Assembly (NCBI GenBank): GCA_045540355.1
Contig: JAZQHB010000008.1
Location: 31,183 to 95,182 of the forward strand
Length of the DNA stretch: 64,000 bases
Source of the DNA: Acutalibacteraceae bacterium
GTDB lineage: Bacteria > Bacillota > Clostridia > Oscillospirales > Acutalibacteraceae
Reading direction: 5' to 3'
The notes beneath the pieces are model-generated. The model ran no database searches, had not been told where the DNA came from, and worked only from the letters and a program-made list of their open reading frames with translations. Positions 2,741 to 36,032 of this stretch are shown here, piece by piece (position 1 is the stretch's first letter; every line of letters starts with the position of its first letter). Both the position numbers and the translations under genes were made by a program.

Positions 2741-3235
2741 ATGAGTGAAAAGGTAAGAATACAATTAGGCTACGATCCCACGGACGAAACAACGCAAAGG
2801 GCGGTTATTATGCTTGAAAGTGCTATGCGAAGTAAATCACAGCTGGTAGCCCTTGCCTTATGCGAATTTGCTGATAAATACGGTTTTCGGATTGATAATA
2901 CAGAAGAAATCAAGACCGTTATTAAAAATTATGACTATTTAAGCAGGGCAATGGATATGGCGGTGCCGACAGAAAGAGTTTTGGCACCCTCTACTCCTAC
3001 TCCGACTTATCAGAGGACAGAAAAACCGAAGAAACCGGAAAGACAGACTGAAAAAGCAAAAAGTAACAAAATGTTACTTTATGAAGAACCGTCTGCAAAG
3101 GAAGAGGTTGCAGAGGAAATTCCCGCATCTGACACTCCCAAAGCTGTTGATTTAGGTTTGGAAGAAGACATTGTGGTATCAGAAAAGGCAATGATGTCAA
3201 TGAATAATGTACTTGCAATGTTCTCGCAAGGGTAA
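2741..3235 (+). CDS. Putative ParR-like adaptor (ribbon-helix-helix-like N-terminus, low-complexity tail)
   Basis: Lies directly downstream of parM, as in type II par loci. The N-terminus VRIQLGYDP...AVIMLESAM is compatible with an RHH fold. No sequence motif proves this. Confidence 0.4.
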   Translation: MSEKVRIQLGYDPTDETTQRAVIMLESAMRSKSQLVALALCEFADKYGFRIDNTEEIKTVIKNYDYLSRAMDMAVPTERVLAPSTPTPTYQRTEKPKKPERQTEKAKSNKMLLYEEPSAKEEVAEEIPASDTPKAVDLGLEEDIVVSEKAMMSMNNVLAMFSQG

Positions 3236-3267
3236 AAAATTACGATTTTTAATATTTACAACTTTTA

Positions 3268-3907: not shown

Positions 3908-6103
3908 ATGAACTCAACTTACGAACCTATATTAAATAAAAAGCAAACCCGCATACTGACTTTTTTAGTATGTGTTATATTGCTCGCTGTCACTATCCTG
4001 CCTTCGTATGCGGTTGATTTCGGAAACATTGGCGATATGATTACAGAAGAGGCAGAAGGAATATTTGAATATGCGGTAGACGGGTTAGAAAATGTTAAAG
4101 GATATGTTACCGATGCAATACTGGTCGGTGCATTGGAAACACTGATAATGGGTATTGATTTTGCAGGAGAACTTTTTGTGAAATTACTCACTACTTCTTT
4201 TTCTCCCTCTCTTAATCCTTTACTGAATATTGAAAAAGGATTATCTTTTTCTACGCCTATTGCAGACGACGCATATTATGAAGGTGCAACCATAGATAAT
4301 TCATTTACAATTATGGCTATTTGGGAATTTGCTTTTATGTTCGGAATTATTACTTGCACACTCCTTATGTTCTTCTATCTCTTTATGTGTTTGGTAGGTC
4401 AGCAGGAACAAATCAGAGATACGCCGTTTATGTTACTGGTAAAATATGCGGTATCTCTTGCTCTGATTTATTTTTCAAAGTATTTTATTACGGGATTTAT
4501 TGACTTTTTTTATGATATGTGGACTACTCTCGTCTTTACAAAAGACATATCAACGCCCGAAACATATACGGCGTTTTTACCGATATGGTGGGAAAATGGT
4601 GATTTCCGAAACGGAGATTTAGTTGCTTTTGGAGTAAAAATAGTAACAGAAAAAGCCGGGACGGCAGGGGTTGTAGGTTCCATTTTAGCGATGCCTTTTA
4701 CTGGCGGTGCAAGTGGAAGTGTTGCGATTGGAATTATTTTAGTTATTATAATTTTCGCACTTTATTTCGGCTGGAAAATCATCAAGGAATTTATGAAGCT
4801 GTTTCTTGAAGTTGTTGAAAGATATTTTGTAGTGTTTATTCTTTTAGCGTTTTTCCCTGCCGTAGCATCTACTTTTGTATCAAACAATTCAAAGAAAATC
4901 TTTTATGCCTATATAAAAATGTTGTATTCGCAGGGTTTCTTGTTGCTCGTCAATACAATTTTTATGGTTATTTTCTTCAAAATCCTTTTAGTAGGTGGTT
5001 GGAGTGCCGGACTGATCAATTACATCGGTGCTTTGGCTTTCCTTCGCATCTGCCAAAGAATAGATGCTTATATGGCACAGTTAGGTATCAACATCGTACA
5101 GACTGGTGGCGGTCTTATGAGTGCTTGCGGAAGCGTATTCGGTGGTGCATTGGCTGGAATGAGTGCTTTGCGTGGTGCTGACAGAACAAGAAAAAATGTT
5201 GGCACAGCACTTATGAATAAGGGCATATCCACGGGCAGTTATAAAGATTACAATACAGGTCTTAATTTGAAAAAAACTGGTAGTGATATGGTAATAGGTT
5301 TAGGTAGTAACTCCTCCGCATCACAACAGTTACAAAATGTAAGCAATTTTGAACAAATGGTTTTGGCAAATGGAGGTTTCAAGCAAGGACAAGTAATGCA
5401 ATTTTCTCCTAATCGTAGTCTTAACGATAATTTAAGAGATCATCATTTACCTAGCACTTACGGAGATAAGTTACAGAAAGAATTAGGTAATGCTAAAATA
5501 ACCGGAATGACTGTCGAAAAAGACGGTGGAGGTATAATGTCCGTAAATTATACAGATGCCGACGGAAAAGAAGGAAAAGCAGTTATTTATAACGGAGAAG
5601 TTATTGCCAACAAAAATGAGGTTAATGAGCAAAGCGTGGCACAATCCTACAACAACGATATTCATAACCAAAATACCGCTTTATCAGAAAAAATATCAAA
5701 AGCCGGTATGGATAATGCAAAAAAAAGCGAAAACAGTTCAGCTACAAATTTCATAGCAGACCATTCTGTAAGCGACGGTCAAGTAGAAAAAGTAAATATA
5801 AGCGGACGCGATGCTTTTTATGTTCAAGGTATGGGTATAGAAATGAGCAGTCAAGAAGGGAATATCCATTCATACGGCACTGTATATTATCCCACCACTG
5901 AAAATCCCGAATTGCTTAACAATGTAGGAAAGGACAAAAACTGGGGATTAAGCGACGACAAACAATATATTTTTGAAGTTCGAGGTAAAGAATACACAAA
6001 TAATAGTTTTGAAAACGAGGTTACACATCAAAAAGATAGTAACAAGTATGAAAGTCAACCTAGAAGTGGGAAAAATAAACCTAGACATAACGGCAGGAAA
6101 TAG
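3908..6103 (+). CDS. VirB6/TrbL/TcpH-like polytopic T4SS membrane protein
   Basis: 731 aa with many hydrophobic helices across roughly aa 20-420, then a long soluble C-terminal part. Position is upstream of the hydrolase gene in the T4SS gene cluster; virB4 lies about 13 kb further on. Confidence 0.6.
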   Translation: MNSTYEPILNKKQTRILTFLVCVILLAVTILPSYAVDFGNIGDMITEEAEGIFEYAVDGLENVKGYVTDAILVGALETLIMGIDFAGELFVKLLTTSFSPSLNPLLNIEKGLSFSTPIADDAYYEGATIDNSFTIMAIWEFAFMFGIITCTLLMFFYLFMCLVGQQEQIRDTPFMLLVKYAVSLALIYFSKYFITGFIDFFYDMWTTLVFTKDISTPETYTAFLPIWWENGDFRNGDLVAFGVKIVTEKAGTAGVVGSILAMPFTGGASGSVAIGIILVIIIFALYFGWKIIKEFMKLFLEVVERYFVVFILLAFFPAVASTFVSNNSKKIFYAYIKMLYSQGFLLLVNTIFMVIFFKILLVGGWSAGLINYIGALAFLRICQRIDAYMAQLGINIVQTGGGLMSACGSVFGGALAGMSALRGADRTRKNVGTALMNKGISTGSYKDYNTGLNLKKTGSDMVIGLGSNSSASQQLQNVSNFEQMVLANGGFKQGQVMQFSPNRSLNDNLRDHHLPSTYGDKLQKELGNAKITGMTVEKDGGGIMSVNYTDADGKEGKAVIYNGEVIANKNEVNEQSVAQSYNNDIHNQNTALSEKISKAGMDNAKKSENSSATNFIADHSVSDGQVEKVNISGRDAFYVQGMGIEMSSQEGNIHSYGTVYYPTTENPELLNNVGKDKNWGLSDDKQYIFEVRGKEYTNNSFENEVTHQKDSNKYESQPRSGKNKPRHNGRK

Positions 6104-19034: not shown

Positions 19035-19171
19035 AATAATCTCTCCTTTCAAGTTGAAAATTTGTTAGTCAAAAGTTTTTGTTGTTTGTTATGTACTCAT
19101 TATTACACATTTAGCAGTAAAAAGCAAATATTTACGATTTCGCACCCTTTTATTCGCAGAGGACAATCACG

Positions 19172-19196: not shown

Positions 19197-19322
19197 GTAT
19201 GATTATTGCATTATATACATTTTTCAAAAAATTACGATTTTAGATTGTTTTCATTTTTGTTTTCTGTATAATATACAAATATAAATGTAAAGTTTACAAA
19301 AAATAAAAAGAAGGGAGAATAT

Positions 19323-19715
19323 ATGCGTAGGGAACGAATAACGCCAAACAATGTAATACAAATCAACCGAATATTTGGTTTCAAAAAACGAAACCTTATT
19401 GAAGGTGTGGTATGGGCGGTAATTGCCGGACTGATAATCAACGCAATTCCATTCGTTGTGAAAGTAAAATGGATAGTTATTATCTGCGTAGGCATTGCCT
19501 TAATTATAGCAAATGCTTTCGGCATCAATGGCTATCCCGTATCAGCAACGGTCTTAAACTGGCTCAAATACCGCTACTATCTTAATCAATTTTCTTATAG
19601 GAGGTTAAACAAAGATGTTGGAGAATACAAAAAAATCACAGACGAAAAAAACAGGATTAGAACAATTACGGCAACTCGTTCAATCCAAAACATCAGAAAA
19701 TTCTTCGGACAGTAA
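19323..19715 (+). CDS. PrgI/TcpE/VirB3-like small T4SS membrane protein
   Basis: 130 aa, two hydrophobic helices, immediately upstream of (and overlapping) virB4. Confidence 0.6.
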   Translation: MRRERITPNNVIQINRIFGFKKRNLIEGVVWAVIAGLIINAIPFVVKVKWIVIICVGIALIIANAFGINGYPVSATVLNWLKYRYYLNQFSYRRLNKDVGEYKKITDEKNRIRTITATRSIQNIRKFFGQ

Positions 19716-22251
19716 AGTAAGTGTTCTCGGCAATGTCTTTGGGAAACTCAATAAGAAAGAGGAACAGCAACTCCACTTCGCCCAAGATATGATTGATGTA
19801 GAGGATATTGTAGCAGGACTTATTTTTACCAAAAGCGGTTCCGTGGTTAAAATCCTTGAAGTCCTACCACTTAACTTTACGGAAAAAGACGATTTTACAA
19901 AAGATATGATTGCAGATGCGTTTGGTTACGGATTAAAGCGTGGACCAAAAAACGCCCACATTAAAGTAATGCGTTCTCAATCCGACATCTCTCCTTTTAT
20001 CCGAAATGTCAGAGATGCTATGGCTGATGAAACCGACGAGAATTTAAGATTGCGTGTAGAAGATTATTTAAAGCACACACAACATCTGCAAGAGAGAAAT
20101 ACCCGTAAAAACCGTTTCTTCTATATCTTTGAATATGAAGGCGATGAAAACGGAAAGAAAAGTGCTGACTGGGACGAAGTATATACAAATATGAGGCAGA
20201 TTACCTACTCGGTTGCTACTGCCTTGCAATCGACTGGAAACTATGTTATTGACTACGCCTTAACGGGCGACAACATTTCCATTGCAGAAATATTGTACTC
20301 ACACTTCAATCCGAAGACTTCAAAAAAAGAACCGTTCAGCGAAAGACAGCGTAAGGTTATTGAAGCAATCAATTACATCAACCGGACAGAAGGCACTAAC
20401 ATATCGGCACCGTTGGAGGATTACTTGGCACCGAGAGGCTTACGCTTTGGCAAATGGGATTATGCGGTAATGGACGGTATGTATCACACTTACCTTTCCT
20501 TGTCAGACGAAAGTTTCCCGAAAGTAAGCTATGCAGGATTATTCACACAAAACCTTATGGAAGGCTTGGACGACTGCGATTTAGATATTTATTACAAGGA
20601 AAAGCCCCGCGAGATGTCGTTACGATTACTGGAAAGAACGGGAACCATATCGCGAGGCGTTGCACTCAATTATATCGGCGACAATCAGAAGCAGGAAAAT
20701 TTGCACAGCACATCAAGTAATGCGGAATACATAAGGGCAAGAATGAAAGACGGCGAAGAAGAACTGTATGATGTTTCCATTATTTTAACGATGCGTGCAA
20801 ATACACTGACAGAGTTAAGGGAAATGAAAAAGACCTACTTGCGTAATAAAAGGTCTGACAACTGTTCTTTTGAAAGTTGCTTTATGAAGACGCAGGAATA
20901 TTGGAAAATGGTTACTCCCACAATGAGTATCAATCAGCAGATATTTAGGGAAAACGCCCGCAATATGACAAACGACGGACTGGCAAATCTTTATTGCTTT
21001 AACTCTTACGAGATGTTTGATCCTGCGGGTGCTTGTATGGGTAAGACCGTAAAAGAAGACACACTCTTCTCTCTTAATAACTTCGATACCGCTAAATTCC
21101 CGAACCCGCATATATTCATAGCAGGTACTTCGGGTGCAGGTAAAACCTTTACGGAACTGATGCTGACAAGCCGTATGCGTATGCACGGTAGCCGTATTGT
21201 ATATATCTTACCGTTGAAAGGACACGAATATAAAGATGCCGTTCTTTCAATCGGTGGCGAATTTATATCTCTTCGCCCCGGCGGTAACAACTGTATTAAC
21301 ATTATGGAAATCAGACCGGAAGGCAGTGCAAAACTGGACGGATTAGACGATGCGGAAATCGCGGAAGAATTGGCAAAGATGCCTTCACTGCTCTCCAAGA
21401 AGATAACCAGTATCATCACTTGGTTACGATTACTTGTCGGCGAAGAAGACAGATTAACCGTAGAAGAAGTCGGAGAAATAAATGCTCTCTTGCAGGAGTT
21501 ATACGGAAACTTTGGCATCACGGAAGACAACAACTCCATTTGGCAGAACAAACAGAAAGGCATCTTAAAGCGTATGCCTATCATCGAAGATATGTATAAC
21601 GCAATGCTATCTAATGAACTGCTCTCCCGCCGTACTCCCGTCTTAAAGACTTGGGTATTCGGTAACTGCAAGAATATGAACCAGCAGACAAATGTTGATA
21701 TGACAAAGAAAGCGATTGCTTTCGATATTAACGAAGATTACATCGGCGAAGAATTACTCCCTGCATTTATGTATATCGCTTTCGATGCGGGATATGACAT
21801 CTGCAAGGAAGACGAATACGAAACCTGCGTAATCGCACTGGACGAAATTTGGAAGCTGTTGCAAATCTCTGCTTGTGCAAAACAGATTGACAAAATGATT
21901 AGAATACTTCGTGCGTATGGTGCGTCGGCAATTACTGCCACACAGGATATTGATAAGTGCCTTGAAAATGAGTTTGGTAAATCCATTCTCCAAAACTCGG
22001 CAATCAAGATATTCCTTAATGTCACCAAAGAAGAAATGGAGGTATTGGAAAAATCCGTTACCTTTACAGAAGAAAACAAACAAAATCTTCTCAACGCACC
22101 GAAGGGTATCGGCTTCGTAACCTACAAGTCGGAAAAAGTATTTGTTCGATTTATTGCGTCAGAATACGAAGAAGAACTCTACACTACCGACATCAATAAG
22201 AAGCGTGAGTTAAGACAACGGCGTATGAATAAGCGTACCGCATACGCATAA
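19615..22251 (+). CDS. virB4: VirB4-family T4SS ATPase
   Basis: 878 aa. Walker A FIAGTSGAGKTF; Walker B-like VIALDEIW. SD AGGAGG 10 nt before ATG 19615. Confidence 0.9.
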   Translation: MLENTKKSQTKKTGLEQLRQLVQSKTSENSSDSKVSVLGNVFGKLNKKEEQQLHFAQDMIDVEDIVAGLIFTKSGSVVKILEVLPLNFTEKDDFTKDMIADAFGYGLKRGPKNAHIKVMRSQSDISPFIRNVRDAMADETDENLRLRVEDYLKHTQHLQERNTRKNRFFYIFEYEGDENGKKSADWDEVYTNMRQITYSVATALQSTGNYVIDYALTGDNISIAEILYSHFNPKTSKKEPFSERQRKVIEAINYINRTEGTNISAPLEDYLAPRGLRFGKWDYAVMDGMYHTYLSLSDESFPKVSYAGLFTQNLMEGLDDCDLDIYYKEKPREMSLRLLERTGTISRGVALNYIGDNQKQENLHSTSSNAEYIRARMKDGEEELYDVSIILTMRANTLTELREMKKTYLRNKRSDNCSFESCFMKTQEYWKMVTPTMSINQQIFRENARNMTNDGLANLYCFNSYEMFDPAGACMGKTVKEDTLFSLNNFDTAKFPNPHIFIAGTSGAGKTFTELMLTSRMRMHGSRIVYILPLKGHEYKDAVLSIGGEFISLRPGGNNCINIMEIRPEGSAKLDGLDDAEIAEELAKMPSLLSKKITSIITWLRLLVGEEDRLTVEEVGEINALLQELYGNFGITEDNNSIWQNKQKGILKRMPIIEDMYNAMLSNELLSRRTPVLKTWVFGNCKNMNQQTNVDMTKKAIAFDINEDYIGEELLPAFMYIAFDAGYDICKEDEYETCVIALDEIWKLLQISACAKQIDKMIRILRAYGASAITATQDIDKCLENEFGKSILQNSAIKIFLNVTKEEMEVLEKSVTFTEENKQNLLNAPKGIGFVTYKSEKVFVRFIASEYEEELYTTDINKKRELRQRRMNKRTAYA

Positions 22252-22269
22252 ATACTCTTTATTATTACA

Positions 22270-22416
22270 TAAACACTCTATAAGTAGACAAAAGCACTTA
22301 ATAAGTCTTACTTAACACTCATTCACAAGTAATAAGCACTCATTAAATGCAATTATCTACTCTTATATCAACTTAAAACACTACTTACATAACCGTAAGC
22401 ACTACTTGAAAGGAGT
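22270..22416 (+). repeat. Seven tandem 21-bp phased repeats (core tAAgCACTcaTT)
   Basis: CACT cores at 22274, 22295, 22316, 22337, (TACT 22358), 22379 and 22400, an exact 21-bp register running into the SD of 22422. Confidence 0.85.
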
Positions 22417-22421
22417 TCTAT

Positions 22422-23036
22422 ATGAGTAAAATTATCAAAGGACAGCTTGAAGAAACAGTAACCGTAGAAAAAGCCGTATATAAGTACGGTTGCATACTGG
22501 CAGAGCAGATTGCAGATTTTATCCCGCCCTTAAAGAAGTTTGAAAGCAAGGAAAATCCGCATATTTCCATTATCAACCACCTTATTTCGGTAAGACATAT
22601 TGATATGCACGAAGGAATACTCTACCCGAAACAGAAGTTAGAGTACCAGCAGTCAATGGTCGACAGCCTATGGGTAATGCTTGACTACCTTAAATATGTG
22701 GAAGATGCACCACACCCGTCTAATATGCTGGCACGGTCACTTATTGCGGAACACCCTTGTACTCTCACATTTATCCCTACACCAAAACCTATGATAAAAA
22801 CCCTCTGCATCTATGATAAAACGCAGATTACTGATGTTTTATTCGAGCAGGAACGCTATAAAACGCAGGATTTTGGCGACGATGATGAAGGTAATCTCCT
22901 TTACTTAATCGTAGTAAAATCCGAAGCTGTATTAGATGCCCTTGGGGACTTGGATATTATCCTTCCACACAAAATAGCCTTTATGGAACAAGAAGGAAAT
23001 TGCCGTCCAAATATTCGCTATTTTAGCCCCTCATAA
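22422..23036 (+). CDS. Hypothetical protein (204 aa)
   Basis: SD GAAAGGAG; no motif recognised. Confidence 0.65.
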   Translation: MSKIIKGQLEETVTVEKAVYKYGCILAEQIADFIPPLKKFESKENPHISIINHLISVRHIDMHEGILYPKQKLEYQQSMVDSLWVMLDYLKYVEDAPHPSNMLARSLIAEHPCTLTFIPTPKPMIKTLCIYDKTQITDVLFEQERYKTQDFGDDDEGNLLYLIVVKSEAVLDALGDLDIILPHKIAFMEQEGNCRPNIRYFSPS

Positions 23037-23042
23037 TAAGGC

Positions 23043-23143
23043 AAATCGTAAGTTTTTCAAGCGTTCAAAACCTTACGAAACGGCTATTTTTCAAAAAATC
23101 AAAATCGAAAGTTTTTCAAAGCAAAAAACAGCGGTTTTTCATA
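23043..23143 (+). repeat. Four direct copies of an AAAnCGnnnGTTTTTCA motif
   Basis: AAATCGTAAGTTTTTCAA (23043), AAACGGCTATTTTTCAA (23078), AAATCGAAAGTTTTTCAA (23102), AAACAGCGGTTTTTCAT (23127). Confidence 0.6.
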
Positions 23144-23323
23144 GCTTTTCAGACTTTGCAAGCAACCGAGGTAAGAGATAAGGGTGGAAAGAAACCCTAT
23201 CAACTTACCAAAATCACAACCCGACAGGGCAACCAAGAACGAAACGGCAAAAAGGCAGGAAGAAAAGCTATGAAAAGACAGAAAACGACGACAATAAAGA
23301 GCCGTCGAAATAGGAGAAAAAAA

Positions 23324-24475
23324 ATGAGCAATACAGAAAAAAACTACCGCAAAGGCTATCGCGAAAAGCTGATACGCCTATCGCTTGCGTGTGGGGCGGT
23401 TCCCTTCAAATCGCTAAATCTCGTAATACCAAACATTGTCAGCTTGCAACACCGCTTGCGGGAAATGGTGCAGAATAACGAATTTAAAGTATACCACGAC
23501 GAAGATATATGGACGGTTGCTATTACTCCCGAAGTGTATGAGAAAATAAAGAACGACGAGAAGTTAAAAGAGCAGTTCGGAGAAGAACTGTTAAAGCACT
23601 ACGAGATGTATGGAAAAAAAGATTATGAAAAGGCTTGCTACTACACCAAGTTTACAAAACAGAAAGCAAGGCGTGTAATGAGAAACAACGAGGCACTACT
23701 GTTTATGCACGGGTGCGATATCACTTGCTTGCCGGGAGAGAAAAAGAGCGACTTACTCTTTTACAGTATTCAGCGCGAGAACCGCTACTACACTTCAAGG
23801 GAATTAAAACGCAATACCAACCTCGATGTGCTGGTAGAGGAAGAAAAAGAGAAACAGCTGGTACACGGTACCCGCATCAACGGAATGTTAAGTATCGGGA
23901 ACGAAACCTATACAGTAATCAATGTAGAGAAAACCTTGTATCAGTTCAGTGCCATAGGAGAACGAAGAACAAGACAGTATATCACGGAATTGTGTTATGA
24001 AAATAATATGCCTGCATTAAGCGGTTGCATCTTTTTGTATAAAGACAACTCCGTAATCAACAAGATAATGCGTCCTTCCACCGCCTATGAAATCAAATAC
24101 TCGCAGGCGATAATGAAAGCCTACGACGAAGACAATATGCTTGCCATTCCGCTGACACCGGACGGACAGAAAATGTTGAAATTGATGAAACAGCCGAATT
24201 GGAAAGAACATCTGCTATCTTCTGCCCTATCGGAAGAACAAAGGAAGTTAAACAAAGAAACTGTTGATTGTGACGGACGCGATACAGACGGGTATCACTT
24301 AATGTTTTGTATTGCCGACATTGCCAAGCTGAAACGATTTCTGTTCAGTGCAGAAGTAATGACCGACCATAAATTCTATATCTACTGTTTCAAGCATCAA
24401 CGCAGTTTATTAAAAACGGTTGCCAAAGGGAATGTTTATCTGCGAAGCATAGACATTGACGATATGGTAGATTAA
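23324..24475 (+). CDS. Hypothetical protein (383 aa) between VirB4 and the coupling protein
   Basis: Start moved to ATG 23324 behind TAGGAG. The upstream part of the tracked ORF is Lys/Arg low complexity over the repeat region. No motif recognised. Confidence 0.6.
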   Translation: MSNTEKNYRKGYREKLIRLSLACGAVPFKSLNLVIPNIVSLQHRLREMVQNNEFKVYHDEDIWTVAITPEVYEKIKNDEKLKEQFGEELLKHYEMYGKKDYEKACYYTKFTKQKARRVMRNNEALLFMHGCDITCLPGEKKSDLLFYSIQRENRYYTSRELKRNTNLDVLVEEEKEKQLVHGTRINGMLSIGNETYTVINVEKTLYQFSAIGERRTRQYITELCYENNMPALSGCIFLYKDNSVINKIMRPSTAYEIKYSQAIMKAYDEDNMLAIPLTPDGQKMLKLMKQPNWKEHLLSSALSEEQRKLNKETVDCDGRDTDGYHLMFCIADIAKLKRFLFSAEVMTDHKFYIYCFKHQRSLLKTVAKGNVYLRSIDIDDMVD

Positions 24476-24488
24476 GAAAGGAGAAATA

Positions 24489-26735
24489 ATGGGACTTAAA
24501 GATTTCTTCAACAAAGCAACAACCGACGAACCAAAAGAGATAGATAATGTTACTCCGTTAAACGAATTGTATGATGATTTAAAAGAACACCAAAAAGCCG
24601 TAATTTTCTATATTGTGGCAAGTGTAATTGTGGGTACCTTCCTGTCGGGACTGTTATACCAGTATATCATCACAATCTTCAATGAAGAACCGATTTACAT
24701 TCTCGCATCGTTCCGTTACGGAATTTCAAAGTCAACTATACTAACGCTTGTGATTATATTCCTGCTGATAGGTGGCGGGTTTAAGGCATACAGGTCGTTG
24801 CAGAGGAGTTATGTAAAAAACTACAAAGACAATTACTTAAAGAGTAAAAGTGAAACCTATGGCGGTTCCCACTTTCAGACGGAAGAAGAATTAAAAGAGA
24901 ATTTTGATTATTTCGATAATATTGAAGATACCAACGGAGAAGTATTCGGTATGGACGAATATGACAAAATTCTCACTTTCAAATACCCGCCGGGAATGAA
25001 CCATAATAAGATTTATTTCGGTGCCCCCGGAAGTGGTAAATCAGCCTGCGTTATTAAGACTGACCTTTACCAAGCGATGTTGCGTGGGGAAAGCGTTGTA
25101 CTTACAGACAGTAAGGGTGCGATATATGCAGAAACCAGTGCGGTTGCACGAAAGCTGGGATATAAGGTTAGGGTATTCAACTTAAAGCCCAAGGAGTTTA
25201 AAAACTGTGACGGCTACAATATGTTTAAGTCTATCCAGCCCGGCGACGATGATATTGATGCAAAAGCTGATGTTATAGCCAACCTTATTATCAAAAACAC
25301 CAGTACACCAAGAGAAGAAGGCGATTACTGGGGCAAGAACGAATTTAACTTACTGAAATGTGTGATTATGTATGTATCTACCAACGCATCGTACATTCAG
25401 ACTAATCAAAATAACTTGCCCGGAATGTTTAATTTTATATCCTCCAAATCCGCAAAAGATATGAAAGGTATATTTACTCTTATTCCGAAAGATAACCCGA
25501 TAAGACAGTGTTATGACATTTTCGCGGAAGCTGATGAAAAGAACCAAGGACAGATTATTAACGGTGCTGGTATCAGATTAAGCAAATTAACAAATGTATA
25601 TTTACAGCAGGCACTCTCCCACGATGAAATTGATCCGGTGGAACCTATGAAGCGTAAGTGCATCTATTATGTTATTATTTCCGATACGGACGACAGTTAT
25701 AAATTCTTGTCTGCACTCTTCTTCTCTACGCTTTTTAATGAACAGTGTGATTATTCTGATAAATTAAGCGGAGAAGCGAAAAGAAAGCAGTTGCCGATTA
25801 ACTATCTTTTGGACGAATATTATGCTACGGGTGGTATTTACGCCCTGCCGATTAAGATTTCTACTCTCCGAAGTCGTAAAATTGGACTTACTATTATCTT
25901 GCAGGATAAAGGACAGCTTACCTCGATGTATGAGGAAGGTGAAGTATCAACCATTCTTAACTGCTGTACGATTAAGGGACTGTTATCTACAAACGACTTG
26001 GTAACAGCGGAGTATTTCTCGGAACTGTTAGGTTCGCAGACGATTGTTGTTCAGAACGATAGAGTATATGAAAGCAGTGCCGATATTATCCACGCTAGAA
26101 ATACCGTGCAGAAGACATTTGGCGAAGGCGAAAGACCGCTGATGTACCCGTCAGACTTAATGAACGGTAAGTTATCAAGGGACGAATTGATTTATGTAAT
26201 TGCTGGTATGCCTCCGGTCAAACTCCGAAAGTATTTCTCTGAAAAAGGTGGCGTTTCAATCCACCCTCTTGAAATTCAAGGAGAAGAATTAGGAAGAAAG
26301 ATGCCACACAGACACCGCCCACGCTGGCGAAAGATTTTAGAGGACGGAATTGCAGTTCCCGAAGAAAAAGAGAAAAAAGCAGAACCTACTACTACTGCTA
26401 CTCCACCGCTTACGGCAAATAAACCAAGACCTGCCACTCCTACTCCCGTGCAGACGACTAAAAAGACCGAAACGACTGATAATACTGGAAAGGCTGGAAC
26501 TGTGGGAGAGAAGAGAAATAAATATACGCAAAGTTCTCCCGTAAATAATCCTACGGCACAAAAAGTAGAAACACCGTCTGCAAAGAATAATCCTGCACCC
26601 ACGCCTGCCACTCCTACTCCGCAGGCAAACACAAAACCGCAGGAACGGAACAAGAAATCAGAAACGGACGAAGATGCTATCCCGAAAAGAAAGACCGTTT
26701 GGAAAGAAGAAAAGATTGACGAAGACTTGTTCTAA
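24489..26735 (+). CDS. virD4: VirD4/TraG/TcpA-type type IV coupling protein
   Basis: Two N-terminal TM helices; Walker A FGAPGSGKSACV; Walker B-like YLLDEY; Pro/Thr-rich C-terminal tail. Confidence 0.9.
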   Translation: MGLKDFFNKATTDEPKEIDNVTPLNELYDDLKEHQKAVIFYIVASVIVGTFLSGLLYQYIITIFNEEPIYILASFRYGISKSTILTLVIIFLLIGGGFKAYRSLQRSYVKNYKDNYLKSKSETYGGSHFQTEEELKENFDYFDNIEDTNGEVFGMDEYDKILTFKYPPGMNHNKIYFGAPGSGKSACVIKTDLYQAMLRGESVVLTDSKGAIYAETSAVARKLGYKVRVFNLKPKEFKNCDGYNMFKSIQPGDDDIDAKADVIANLIIKNTSTPREEGDYWGKNEFNLLKCVIMYVSTNASYIQTNQNNLPGMFNFISSKSAKDMKGIFTLIPKDNPIRQCYDIFAEADEKNQGQIINGAGIRLSKLTNVYLQQALSHDEIDPVEPMKRKCIYYVIISDTDDSYKFLSALFFSTLFNEQCDYSDKLSGEAKRKQLPINYLLDEYYATGGIYALPIKISTLRSRKIGLTIILQDKGQLTSMYEEGEVSTILNCCTIKGLLSTNDLVTAEYFSELLGSQTIVVQNDRVYESSADIIHARNTVQKTFGEGERPLMYPSDLMNGKLSRDELIYVIAGMPPVKLRKYFSEKGGVSIHPLEIQGEELGRKMPHRHRPRWRKILEDGIAVPEEKEKKAEPTTTATPPLTANKPRPATPTPVQTTKKTETTDNTGKAGTVGEKRNKYTQSSPVNNPTAQKVETPSAKNNPAPTPATPTPQANTKPQERNKKSETDEDAIPKRKTVWKEEKIDEDLF

Positions 26736-26739
26736 TAAT

Positions 26740-26888
26740 TTGCAATCAGATATAAAATATGCTAATATAATCCTATGAACAAGATATATTCTTATTATAC
26801 TCTTGTTTCATACTTACCTTGATGCTTATAAGAAGTAAGCATTTCCTTTCTACACCTACAAGGATTGCCAACCTTGTAGGTGTTTTTT
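26740..26888 (+). ncRNA. Promoter (TTGCAA-N17-TAATAT) plus about 115-nt three-hairpin terminated transcript; sRNA candidate
   Basis: Hairpins ATGAACAAGA..TCTTGTTTCAT and ATGCTTA..TAAGCAT. Terminator ACACCTACAAGG..CCTTGTAGGTGTTTTTT. No SD-preceded ORF. Confidence 0.4.
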
Positions 26889-34019: not shown

Positions 34020-34800
34020 CGGAAAAAATCGGTAAAAGATACGGAGTAGCGTGGTAAAAGATGCGGAGTAGTGCGGTAAAAGATACAGAGTAATTCGGTA
34101 AAATTTGGCAGGATTAAATACGGAGTAGTGCGGTAAAAGATACGGAGTAATTCGGTAAAAGATACGGAGTAGCGCGGTAAAAGATACGGAACAATTCGGT
34201 AAAATAGACGATTTAGCGGAAAAAAACAGTAAAAACAGCAATTAAAAAATAAGTGCTGAAATCGTAAGATTTTGAAAAGAATGTAAAAAAAGGGTAAAGG
34301 TACGGAAAAAATCGGTAAAAGATACAGAGAAAAACAGTAAAAGATACGGAATAATTCGGTAAAAATAGGGTTTATTACGGAGTAATTCGGTAAAAAACGC
34401 AGGAAAAACACCATATGATTACCCAAAAACTACATAAAAATAAAAAAAAGAGATAGAAAAAGCCTTACTTACGGAGAAATTCAGTAAAAGATGCGGAGTA
34501 ATTCGGTAAATATATGATTTATAACGGAGAAAATCGGTAAACATAATGTAGAAATATTCCTTGAAAAAAGTAAAGTTAATGAGCCAAAGTATTGTATTAC
34601 CGAAAATATCCGCTATAAAATCGTAAGTTTTTGAAAAAATCAATATTTAGTGTTTTTATAATTTCAACACATACAAAATAAGAAAAATCCCCCACCTTTT
34701 TAACGGAAAAAAACAGTAAAATAGTAATTGACAAGGTATAATAGTAAGCCTTATAATAAAATTGTTTTTAACGGAAAAAAACAGTAAAAAGCAAATGAGG
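34020..34800 (+). repeat. Iteron array (at least 15 copies of CGGTAAAAGATACGGAGTAnnn, 22-bp phase); putative theta-type oriV
   Basis: GGTAAAAG cores at 34031, 34053, 34075, 34097, 34132, 34154, 34176, 34198, 34314, 34336, 34358, 34389, 34483, 34505 and 34536. Degenerate copies flank the rep promoter. Confidence 0.85.
34700..34790 (+). promoter_or_regulatory. rep promoter (TTGACA-N17-TATAAT) bracketed by a direct repeat TTAACGGAAAAAAACAGTAAAA
   Basis: Seen in sequence; the arrangement is typical of Rep autoregulation. Confidence 0.6.
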
Positions 34801-34811
34801 GGATTACAAAA

Positions 34812-36032
34812 GTGGAAGAAAACAAAAAAAATGAGGAAGATACTTCTTTGGCGATTTATGTTGAAAAAGAAGATATAGTTGCAAAAATATGCAATGTTAT
34901 ATTAAAAGCAAAATATAAAACAACGCTATTGGAACAAAAAGTTTTACTTATGTCGCTTGCCCGTATCAGTAATTATAAAATAGAAAAAGGAACCGGGGCA
35001 TTAGTATCTACGCTTGATGTTGCTGATATAAAAAATTGTATCGGAAGAAAAGGAAACTCATTATATGATGAATTGGAAGAAGTAGCCGATAATATGACAG
35101 ACCGCAAAATTGCATTTTCGGATCCCGAAAAAAAAGAGTTTGATTATATGTCGCTTATCATTCGTGCAACTTGTAAAAACGGTAAATTTAAGATTTATTA
35201 TAATCCGTATTTAAGAAATTACATATTAGACATCACTACTAACTATACACCACTTATGGAAAAGATAACAATGTCTTTTAATAGCCTTCATTCGTCCCTG
35301 CTTTATCAAGCATTAAAGCAAAAAGCATATACACCGGGCGAAAAGATTGATAAAACAAGTTTTGAAATAAGAACTTATGAGTTCGAGTACAATCTTGCGG
35401 AACTTTTACTGGACCTTGGATTAGTTGATGCAAATGCAGAAGAGGTAAAAAATATACTTAATAAATCAAAGACACCGGACTACGAAAAAGCTGTGGCAGT
35501 TGCAAAAGAAAAAAAATATAAAGCGTGGTATGATTTTGAAAGATATTCACTTCGTCCGGCAATTAAAGAAATCAATGAAAAAACAGATTTGCGGGTATCA
35601 TACGAAACCATAAAAAGAGGTAGAGGGGGAAAAATAACCGCATTATTATTTACAGTAGATGTAATACCTACGATAAGAACCGATTTACTCTCAAAAAAAG
35701 AGGAAGAAGTAATCACGATAACCGAAGACCAAAAAGACGAATACATAGACTGGTTATCAGACCTTATCGAAACGCCGTTAAAAGTGAAAGACCTGCGTAC
35801 TATCGCAGAAGAGGCAGGATATTCGCAGGAGAAAGCAGAAAAAGCCTACGCCATATTAAAATCCACTCCGCAGGTTGATAATGTGGTAGGATTTATGATT
35901 TCGGCGATCCGTAACAATTATTCCAGTTCCGGCGGGCAAAGCAATAAGGAAAGCAAAAAGAGCGCAAACGATAACATAATGAAGCAAGATTATGATATTG
36001 AAGCAATCGAAAAGGATATTTTGGCAAATTAG
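34812..36032 (+). CDS. rep: Plasmid replication initiator (Rep_3/RepB-like)
   Basis: Immediately downstream of the iterons. N-terminal KAKYKTTLLEQKVLLMSLARI resembles initiator winged-helix proteins. GTG start behind GAGGGG. Confidence 0.7.
   Translation: MEENKKNEEDTSLAIYVEKEDIVAKICNVILKAKYKTTLLEQKVLLMSLARISNYKIEKGTGALVSTLDVADIKNCIGRKGNSLYDELEEVADNMTDRKIAFSDPEKKEFDYMSLIIRATCKNGKFKIYYNPYLRNYILDITTNYTPLMEKITMSFNSLHSSLLYQALKQKAYTPGEKIDKTSFEIRTYEFEYNLAELLLDLGLVDANAEEVKNILNKSKTPDYEKAVAVAKEKKYKAWYDFERYSLRPAIKEINEKTDLRVSYETIKRGRGGKITALLFTVDVIPTIRTDLLSKKEEEVITITEDQKDEYIDWLSDLIETPLKVKDLRTIAEEAGYSQEKAEKAYAILKSTPQVDNVVGFMISAIRNNYSSSGGQSNKESKKSANDNIMKQDYDIEAIEKDILAN

Follow-up and report, generated by a model that had tools for sequence, protein, structure and literature searches.

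Which role does a series of 21-bp direct repeats play in the middle of a conjugation operon, where it fills the gap between virB4 and the genes leading up to virD4? The window, i.e. the whole stretch of 64,000 nucleotides that was analysed, corresponds to C8:31183-95182, C8 being a contig of 105,178 bp. Since the two ends of this contig overlap by 141 bp, C8 is a circular replicon of approximately 105 kb. The nearest named relative is a Lachnospiraceae MAG from the caecum of a water deer. Coordinates are those of the window unless C8 is named. A first-pass annotation of the window had described the repeats as a candidate oriT-accessory or centromere-like array.

The repeat array and its genetic surroundings

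The plasmid encodes a type IV secretion system (T4SS) of the Gram-positive kind, with a CD1110-type VirB4, a CD1115-type VirD4, a thioester adhesin, a sortase and a C39-like protein. A PrgI-like ORF, whose match is weak and lies under the Pfam cut-off, stands upstream of virB4. The features following it are:

19615-22251, + strand: VirB4-like ATPase of the CD1110 family, 878 aa
22248-22415, + strand: 21-bp direct-repeat array of eight head-to-tail units, consensus aTAArYACTcaTTaa
22422-23036, + strand: orf204, a DUF5697 protein of 204 aa with a winged helix (residues 10-69) and a C-terminal alpha/beta domain
23043-23150, directly after the orf204 stop: second cis-element, consisting of a hairpin (23046-23078) and three further copies of its arm
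23324-24475, + strand: orf383, with an N-terminal winged helix, otherwise uncharacterised
24489-26735, + strand: VirD4-like coupling protein of the CD1115 family
26852-26883: terminator that closes the unit

The gap between orf204 and orf383 amounts to 287 bp. The true start of orf383 is the ATG at 23324 and not the TTG at 23156, because the relatives start there and the stretch upstream contains frame-breaking indels. Homologues of orf383 immediately precede VirD4 in all relatives.

The single units of the array read as follows:

22248-22268 (unit 1): ATAAATACTCTTTATTATTAC
22269-22289 (unit 2): ATAAACACTCTATAAGTAGAC
22290-22310 (unit 3): AAAAGCACTTAATAAGTCTTA
22311-22331 (unit 4): CTTAACACTCATTCACAAGTA
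22332-22352 (unit 5): ATAAGCACTCATTAAATGCAA
22353-22373 (unit 6): TTATCTACTCTTATATCAACT
22374-22394 (unit 7): TAAAACACTACTTACATAACC
22395-22415 (unit 8): GTAAGCACTACTTGAAAGGAG

Seven repeats had been counted originally. The repeats are real and phased, and their CACT cores were found again at 22274, 22295, 22316, 22337, 22379 and 22400, with TACT in the degenerate unit at 22358, but the count was too low, since there is an eighth in-phase copy with TACT at 22253. The array indeed occupies the entire gap of 170 bp between virB4 and orf204: virB4 ends with the TAA of unit 1 (22249-22251) as its stop codon, and unit 8 runs into the SD sequence GGAG of orf204, the start codon of which lies 6 bp past the last unit.

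The periodicity is very pronounced. All six CACT words of the gap are in the same phase modulo 21, and the autocorrelation reaches 0.50, 0.47 and 0.50 at lags of 21, 42 and 63, compared to approximately 0.29 elsewhere (z = 9.2). None of 2000 shuffled sequences matched the observed value, even with the best of all periods from 5 to 40 allowed. Only a few of 124,007 windows across the genome score higher, all of them true tandem repeats, and the array itself occurs a single time in the whole genome. A DNA search of plasmid and phage collections with positions 21800-23100 gave no match. Neither an inverted repeat nor a nic-like feature is present within 22248-22415, no terminator was found between virB4 and orf204, and the array contains no sigma-70-like promoter on the + strand at a threshold of at least 9 of 12 matching positions, the best candidate by eye reaching 7 of 12.

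A constant pitch and a changing word

The close relatives of the locus form three lineages with 84-89% protein identity, namely the window itself, L003 with L004 and L013, and L010 with L011. The virB4-orf204 gap measures exactly 170 bp in all three, without any indel, while its sequence is only 52-69% identical between them and the 21-bp periodicity persists (0.43-0.47). Conservation is distributed unequally over the unit. Between these lineages the positions TAA..ACT..TT are 83% identical and the core (positions 2-13) has a mean identity of 69% (range 62-80%), whereas the spacer positions reach a mean of 48% (range 42-58%) and the third codon positions of the genes flanking the array 57-72%. 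Therefore, the core is under purifying selection and the spacers change at least as fast as synonymous sites. A more distant fragment (L006, 61% protein identity) is 21-periodic as well, with a shifted word (cATTAAGTAtTAC). No homologue of orf204 was detected in sixty related genomes.

These numbers also bear on the idea that the array is a functionless, decaying 21-bp tandem duplication, for which one could cite the degeneracy of the units, due to which TRF reports 1.9 copies only. However, the core is conserved above spacers and synonymous sites, the gap has the same length in three lineages, and distant relatives carry unrelated motifs at the same pitch in the same gap (see below), so that we find decay hardly credible at all.

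The full HMMER scan yielded 53 DUF5697 proteins. Five distant loci, with 26-34% protein identity and mostly on short metagenome contigs that are taken as plasmid-borne on account of their gene order, exhibit the arrangement VirB4, gap of 165-205 bp, DUF5697, gap of approximately 295 bp, protein of 390-427 aa, VirD4. The first gap of each contains four to six copies of a different word of its own:

L036: word tCACTwAA, spacings 21, 21 and 112 bp
L037: word TAACGCATAC, spacings 22, 21, 59 and 64 bp
L039: word TTTAGTATTACTA, spacings 22, 19, 22 and 22 bp
L017: word TCATTGATT, spacings 41, 49, 21 and 42 bp
L018: word GTATACA, spacings 31, 21, 21 and 53 bp

Altogether, 13 of the 19 spacings deviate by at most 1 bp from a multiple of 21 (binomial P = 1.2e-7). 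The plasmid pCY186 of Butyrivibrio proteoclasticus (L033, NC_014390.1 12868-15991) possesses at least four copies of the GTTTTAGGTGAAA type in the same gap; its array is split by an IS110 element and the VirB4 region upstream appears to be disrupted. Among the plasmid-type relatives the repeat is hence not absent from syntenic loci, the outcome that the first-pass annotation had regarded as speaking against its proposal, but is kept together with gap length and pitch.

The situation is different in the ICE-type relatives (L029, L031 and L032), where VirB4 is followed by DUF5697, DUF6100, an uncharacterised protein of 381-395 aa and VirD4. These loci have no array, their gaps being merely 26-45 bp long, and the core role of DUF5697 is therefore independent of an adjacent array.

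As far as one can judge from comparing sequences, a fixed pitch of two helical turns combined with a word that changes from lineage to lineage is the mark of an oligomeric protein that keeps its geometry while its DNA specificity drifts together with its sites. The same pitch with lineage-specific words also implies that the feature acts on DNA and not on RNA. An RNA-level element would have a certain appeal in the window itself, since the unit core TACTCAT and the ATGAGTA at the orf204 start (22422-22428) are exact reverse complements. Repeated ACUCAU words could pair with the start AUGAGUA and throttle translation, or an RNA-binding protein could read the repeats. RNAalifold chooses the TACTCAT/ATGAGTA pairing in all four sequences, representing all three close lineages, and the z-score of the fold is modest (-2.26). 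We dropped RNA structure as the main reading, because this modest score is not accompanied by covariation. Moreover, start contexts and motifs are different in L006 and the distant relatives, the pairing is missing in L006, and the family-wide spacings of 21, 42 and 63 point to the helical repeat of B-DNA. A role of the array at the RNA level is, all in all, very improbable.

That the repeats form a binding platform on one face of DNA, as had been proposed at the outset, is strongly supported by the conserved spacing and gap length, the selected core and the other motifs at a pitch of approximately 21 bp in relatives. Because pitch, gap and core are conserved while the words are lineage-specific, we favor a platform that co-evolves with a protein of the module. 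On these grounds, which are those of sequence analysis, we regard the array as very probably a one-face protein-binding platform on DNA.

Candidate binders and a possible gate before the coupling gene

The array travels with the orf204 gene in all plasmid-type lineages, and orf204 has a winged helix; this makes it the best candidate for the binder. Its AF2 model (pLDDT 93, pTM 0.90) consists of the winged helix in residues 10-69, in the order H-H-H-beta-beta (helices 10-22, 27-33 and 46-56, beta hairpin 60-69), and the alpha/beta domain. For the first domain Foldseek returned weak matches to the winged-helix proteins 7bzh, MotA, MarR, BlaI and PadR. What counts against orf204 as the binder is that the protein is acidic overall (pI 5.2) and that its putative recognition helix is poor in basic residues. 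Helix 3 is nearly unchanged between the window and the L003/L004 lineage, which shares the motif of the window, as does L010, and it differs wherever the motif differs; this comparison is consistent with recognition by orf204 but does not discriminate. The binder could alternatively be orf383, the ParR-like protein described below or a host factor. The model of orf383 is of moderate quality (pLDDT 74) and comprises an N-terminal winged helix of the ArsR/MarR type, the remainder being without a clear match. Ten residues are invariant in seven aligned homologues of orf383 (R117, R120, E123, Y156, R184, G187, Y196, E213, D317 and Y324). According to hhalign, the DUF5697 and the 383-aa families are unrelated to each other. 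Searches of PDB sequences with orf204, orf383 and both profiles revealed no solved relative, and neither protein has a match in NCBIfam or PHROGs.

We propose the following mechanism. The eight same-strand sites (TAArYACTcaTT), exactly two helical turns apart, would all face one side of the duplex, and a sequence-specific protein encoded on the plasmid, most likely the winged-helix DUF5697 protein orf204 encoded right after the array, would coat them side by side in a cooperative manner. The coated stretch would constitute the entrance to a DNA-processing sub-module consisting of orf204, orf383 and virD4. The main effect would be a gating of this sub-module: the bound protein would either regulate its own gene or act as a roadblock to transcription reading through from prgI-virB4, and the coupling-protein genes would be expressed depending on the occupancy of the array. 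The same complex could double as an accessory site of a relaxosome, as is the case for TrwA, TraY and RA3 MobC; the two roles are not mutually exclusive. As a whole, with the platform, orf204 as the likely binder and gating as the main effect, this is the reading that we tentatively place first, at somewhat less than an even chance.

The gate or operator is our first choice, because the array ends at the SD sequence of orf204, the other cis-element of the module resembles an operator, and similar sites exist at the parM promoter. Since no sigma-70-like promoter is present in the array, a classical autoregulation at a promoter is not evident, and a roadblock or a non-canonical promoter may apply instead.

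The other cis-element, in the gap between orf204 and orf383, is built from the hairpin TCGTAAGTTTTTsAA/TTCAAAAyCTTACGA and arm copies of the form AAATCGnAAGkTTTTCAA. Positions 23043-23150 are approximately 90% conserved among the three close lineages, far above the array, and the distant relatives have their own lineage-specific inverted repeat with arm copies at this place. The arm motif recurs in inverted orientation (AAAAATTACGATTTT type) at the intergenic positions 3236-3252, 19126-19143 and 19230-19248, including a divergent T4SS promoter region, and therefore resembles a dispersed operator. The hairpin element could be an operator or a nick region. Since the words in the two gaps are unrelated, two different binders are to be expected, and two winged-helix genes are present; a lineage-specific element before the second of these genes, too, fits with one cis-element per protein.

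The similar sites at the parM promoter belong to the following region:

1622-1682, + strand: two array-like sites, TAAAATACTACTTATTTTG and ATAAGCACTCTTTATTTTG, 42 bp apart, just 5' of the -35 of the ParM-like gene
approximately 1690-1719: promoter of the ParM-like gene, TTGCTT-N18-TATAAT
approximately 1762-2725: ParM-like gene, with its true start at the ATG at approximately 1762 and not at the TTG at 1691
2741-3235: ParR-like ORF of 164 aa with an N-terminus that looks ribbon-helix-helix-like by eye, without profile support

A PWM derived from the array has its best match on the plasmid outside the array at 1664 (ATAAGCACTCTTTA) and a second match at 1622, exactly 42 bp away, and an unbiased repeat search recovered the same pair. 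For each spacing, approximately 0.04 such pairs are to be expected. The pair is kept in the relative L016, where the region is 92% identical overall. That these are extra sites for the factor binding the array is suggestive only, but would fit a regulator role of this factor. The only other 42-bp pair, on the minus strand (5115/5157), was ruled out as array-like, as it is a coding M-S-A repeat. It lies in the gene of a membrane-type protein of 731 aa, in which a glycine-rich repeat (G-x-MSA) occurs twice at a distance of 14 residues (5115-5170).

The parM pair bears at the same time on the view of the array as a centromere, bound by the ParR-like protein of the ParM-like system as ParR binds parC. 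In pSK41, the repeat unit of parC is 20 bp long. Type II parC consists of tandem repeats on one face of DNA, located as a single locus upstream of parMR and bound by ParR (PMC5016525). The array resembles parC of pSK41 and R1 in its tandem, helically phased repeats and in the putative coating by a small plasmid protein. A ParM-like actin gene followed by a small ORF with a possible ribbon-helix-helix, the array-like pair upstream of it, a weak half-period signal of the array at lags 10 and 31 and the occurrence of arrays in plasmid-type but not in ICE-type relatives are also in line with a centromere. However, parC by definition lies immediately upstream of parMR, whereas the array is 20.6 kb away inside the T4SS operon and just two array-like sites are found upstream of parM. 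Furthermore, the array always accompanies the DUF5697 gene in distant relatives. On the 186-kb plasmid pCY186, the GTTTTAGGTGAAA motif is confined to the array and not near any partition gene; its other matches are coding DNA near rep and dnaX and no meaningful copies. Chance pairs are possible as well, given that the other 42-bp pair of the same scan turned out to be coding. With the two partition loci of the plasmid approximately 20 kb away, we consider a centromere improbable. Thus, of the roles named in the first-pass annotation, the oriT-accessory function is conceivable and the centromere has little in its favor, and the autoregulator or operator, listed there as a third option, is no less probable than the other two.

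The array in relation to relaxosomes

Under a further reading, the array is a platform of the relaxosome or an oriT-accessory site. It would bring in orf204 and/or orf383, as an accessory protein or an unconventional relaxase, and the nick would be nearby, for instance at the hairpin of the second gap. The earlier statement that no relaxase is identifiable holds for the ORFs scanned on the 105-kb plasmid. The scan covered a part of the ORFs below 250 aa and every ORF from 250 aa upwards but for the ParB-like one (372 aa), which was read by eye, and none of the scanned ORFs has a match to a Pfam relaxase family. PF03432 and PF13814 (Replic_Relax) have no match on C8. In the whole genome PF13814 has no match at E ≤ 0.1, and the eight matches to PF03432, i.e. 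MOBP relaxases, are all located on contigs other than C8. In five ICE-type genomes sharing the module, no PF03432 relaxase is present near it either. MOB-suite types the related pCY186 as non-mobilizable and MPF_T despite its T4SS. A complete T4SS on a plasmid without a Pfam relaxase among the scanned ORFs leaves room for an unconventional one, and the order of cis-element, small DNA binder, larger winged-helix protein and coupling protein is that of Dtr modules.

The C-terminal domain of orf204 adds to this, since its weak Foldseek matches are to proteins of the PD-(D/E)XK fold, namely 1xmx (E 7e-3, TM 0.28), NucS/EndoMS, Can2/Card1 and EcoO109I. However, no acidic triad is invariant across the DUF5697 family (D81 is conserved to 85%, E144 to 76% and D167 to 67%), and orf204 of the window has K166/S167 where the family has R/D. 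The best-conserved residues of the family are Q29, D81, W84, P112, P182 and P196. Neither orf204 nor orf383 matches Replic_Relax in Pfam, and hhalign gives probabilities below 2% for both families. Generic hallmarks of an oriT are likewise missing at the array: the nearest hairpin is that at 23046-23078, more than 600 bp away with a whole gene in between, and copies of its motif are scattered over other promoters of the plasmid in an operator-like manner. The lack of an array in the ICE-type relatives also argues against the relaxosome. In view of all this, we rate the relaxosome platform as less likely than not, but as the strongest rival of the gate. Going further, one could assume that DUF5697 and the winged-helix protein of 383 aa together constitute an unrecognised non-HUH relaxosome of T4SS of the CD1110/CD1115 type in Lachnospiraceae plasmids and ICEs, for which the array would be the binding site determining specificity and the hairpin in the next gap the nick region. 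This more specific proposal appears unlikely to us.

Two systems of Gram-positive bacteria are the closest precedents for a relaxosome platform. TraX of pAD1 from Enterococcus faecalis, a MOBC relaxase, has an N-terminal winged helix joined to a fold of the restriction-endonuclease type, and its binding site is a set of five direct repeats at a distance of 70-120 bp from nic (PMC12857230). The model of orf204 has an N-terminal winged helix, too, followed by a domain with a weak likeness to a nuclease-type fold, again with a series of direct repeats beside T4SS and coupling genes on a Firmicutes plasmid. In contrast to TraX, no relation to Replic_Relax in sequence or profile was found here, no DEE-type triad is conserved, and eight repeats at a pitch of 21 bp are present instead of five. 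A nuclease activity of orf204 is doubtful. The oriT region of pLS20 lies inside the conjugation operon. It is located directly upstream of aux1, aux2 and rel, and Aux2 binds three direct repeats (PMC5675868). Common to both plasmids are the cis-region directly 5' of genes for small DNA-binding proteins and, if the reading is correct, an accessory protein on direct repeats. However, Aux1 and Aux2 are ribbon-helix-helix proteins, the pLS20 relaxase is of the HUH type and the three repeats are irregular, whereas the locus studied here encodes winged-helix proteins, has no recognisable relaxase and contains eight strictly phased repeats.

For the gate that we prefer, TrwA of R388, TraY of F and TraN of pIP501 are comparable examples. 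These DNA binders of transfer regions have repeated sites just upstream of their own operon and double as accessory proteins. Their sites, two to four in number, overlap mapped promoters, which distinguishes them from the array with its eight sites and no recognisable promoter.

Large Lachnospiraceae plasmids and ICEs with this type of T4SS are common in gut and rumen, but they have no recognisable relaxase or oriT and are scored as non-mobilizable, for instance by MOB-suite. Among cis-acting features, the array gives the clearest access to DUF5697 and the 383-aa family, two core proteins that are still uncharacterised, and thereby offers a direct route to the question of how transfer is controlled or started in such elements. 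Even if the array is only an operator, it would still illustrate how specificity can drift while the geometry of an oligomer stays fixed.

Repeats of similar size exist at a second place of the plasmid. Approximately 14 copies of a 22-bp iteron (34029-34364, unit CGGTAAAAGATACGGAGTAGCG, super-period of 44 bp) are located upstream of the gene of the Rep3 initiator (34812-36032) and are likely the oriV of the plasmid. Rep3-type iterons resemble the array insofar as they are 21-22-bp direct repeats that winged-helix proteins recognise. We rejected the array as a set of Rep3 iterons, since the iterons of this plasmid have another sequence and adjoin Rep3, whereas no rep gene is found at the array. 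Apart from Rep3 and the ParM-like/ParR-like genes, C8 encodes a ParA/ParB-like pair, NrdD, two RecD-like helicases, a YqaJ exonuclease and a tyrosine recombinase. A DUF6100-like gene is also present on this plasmid, where it sits apart from the module (C8 1936-2604, minus strand).
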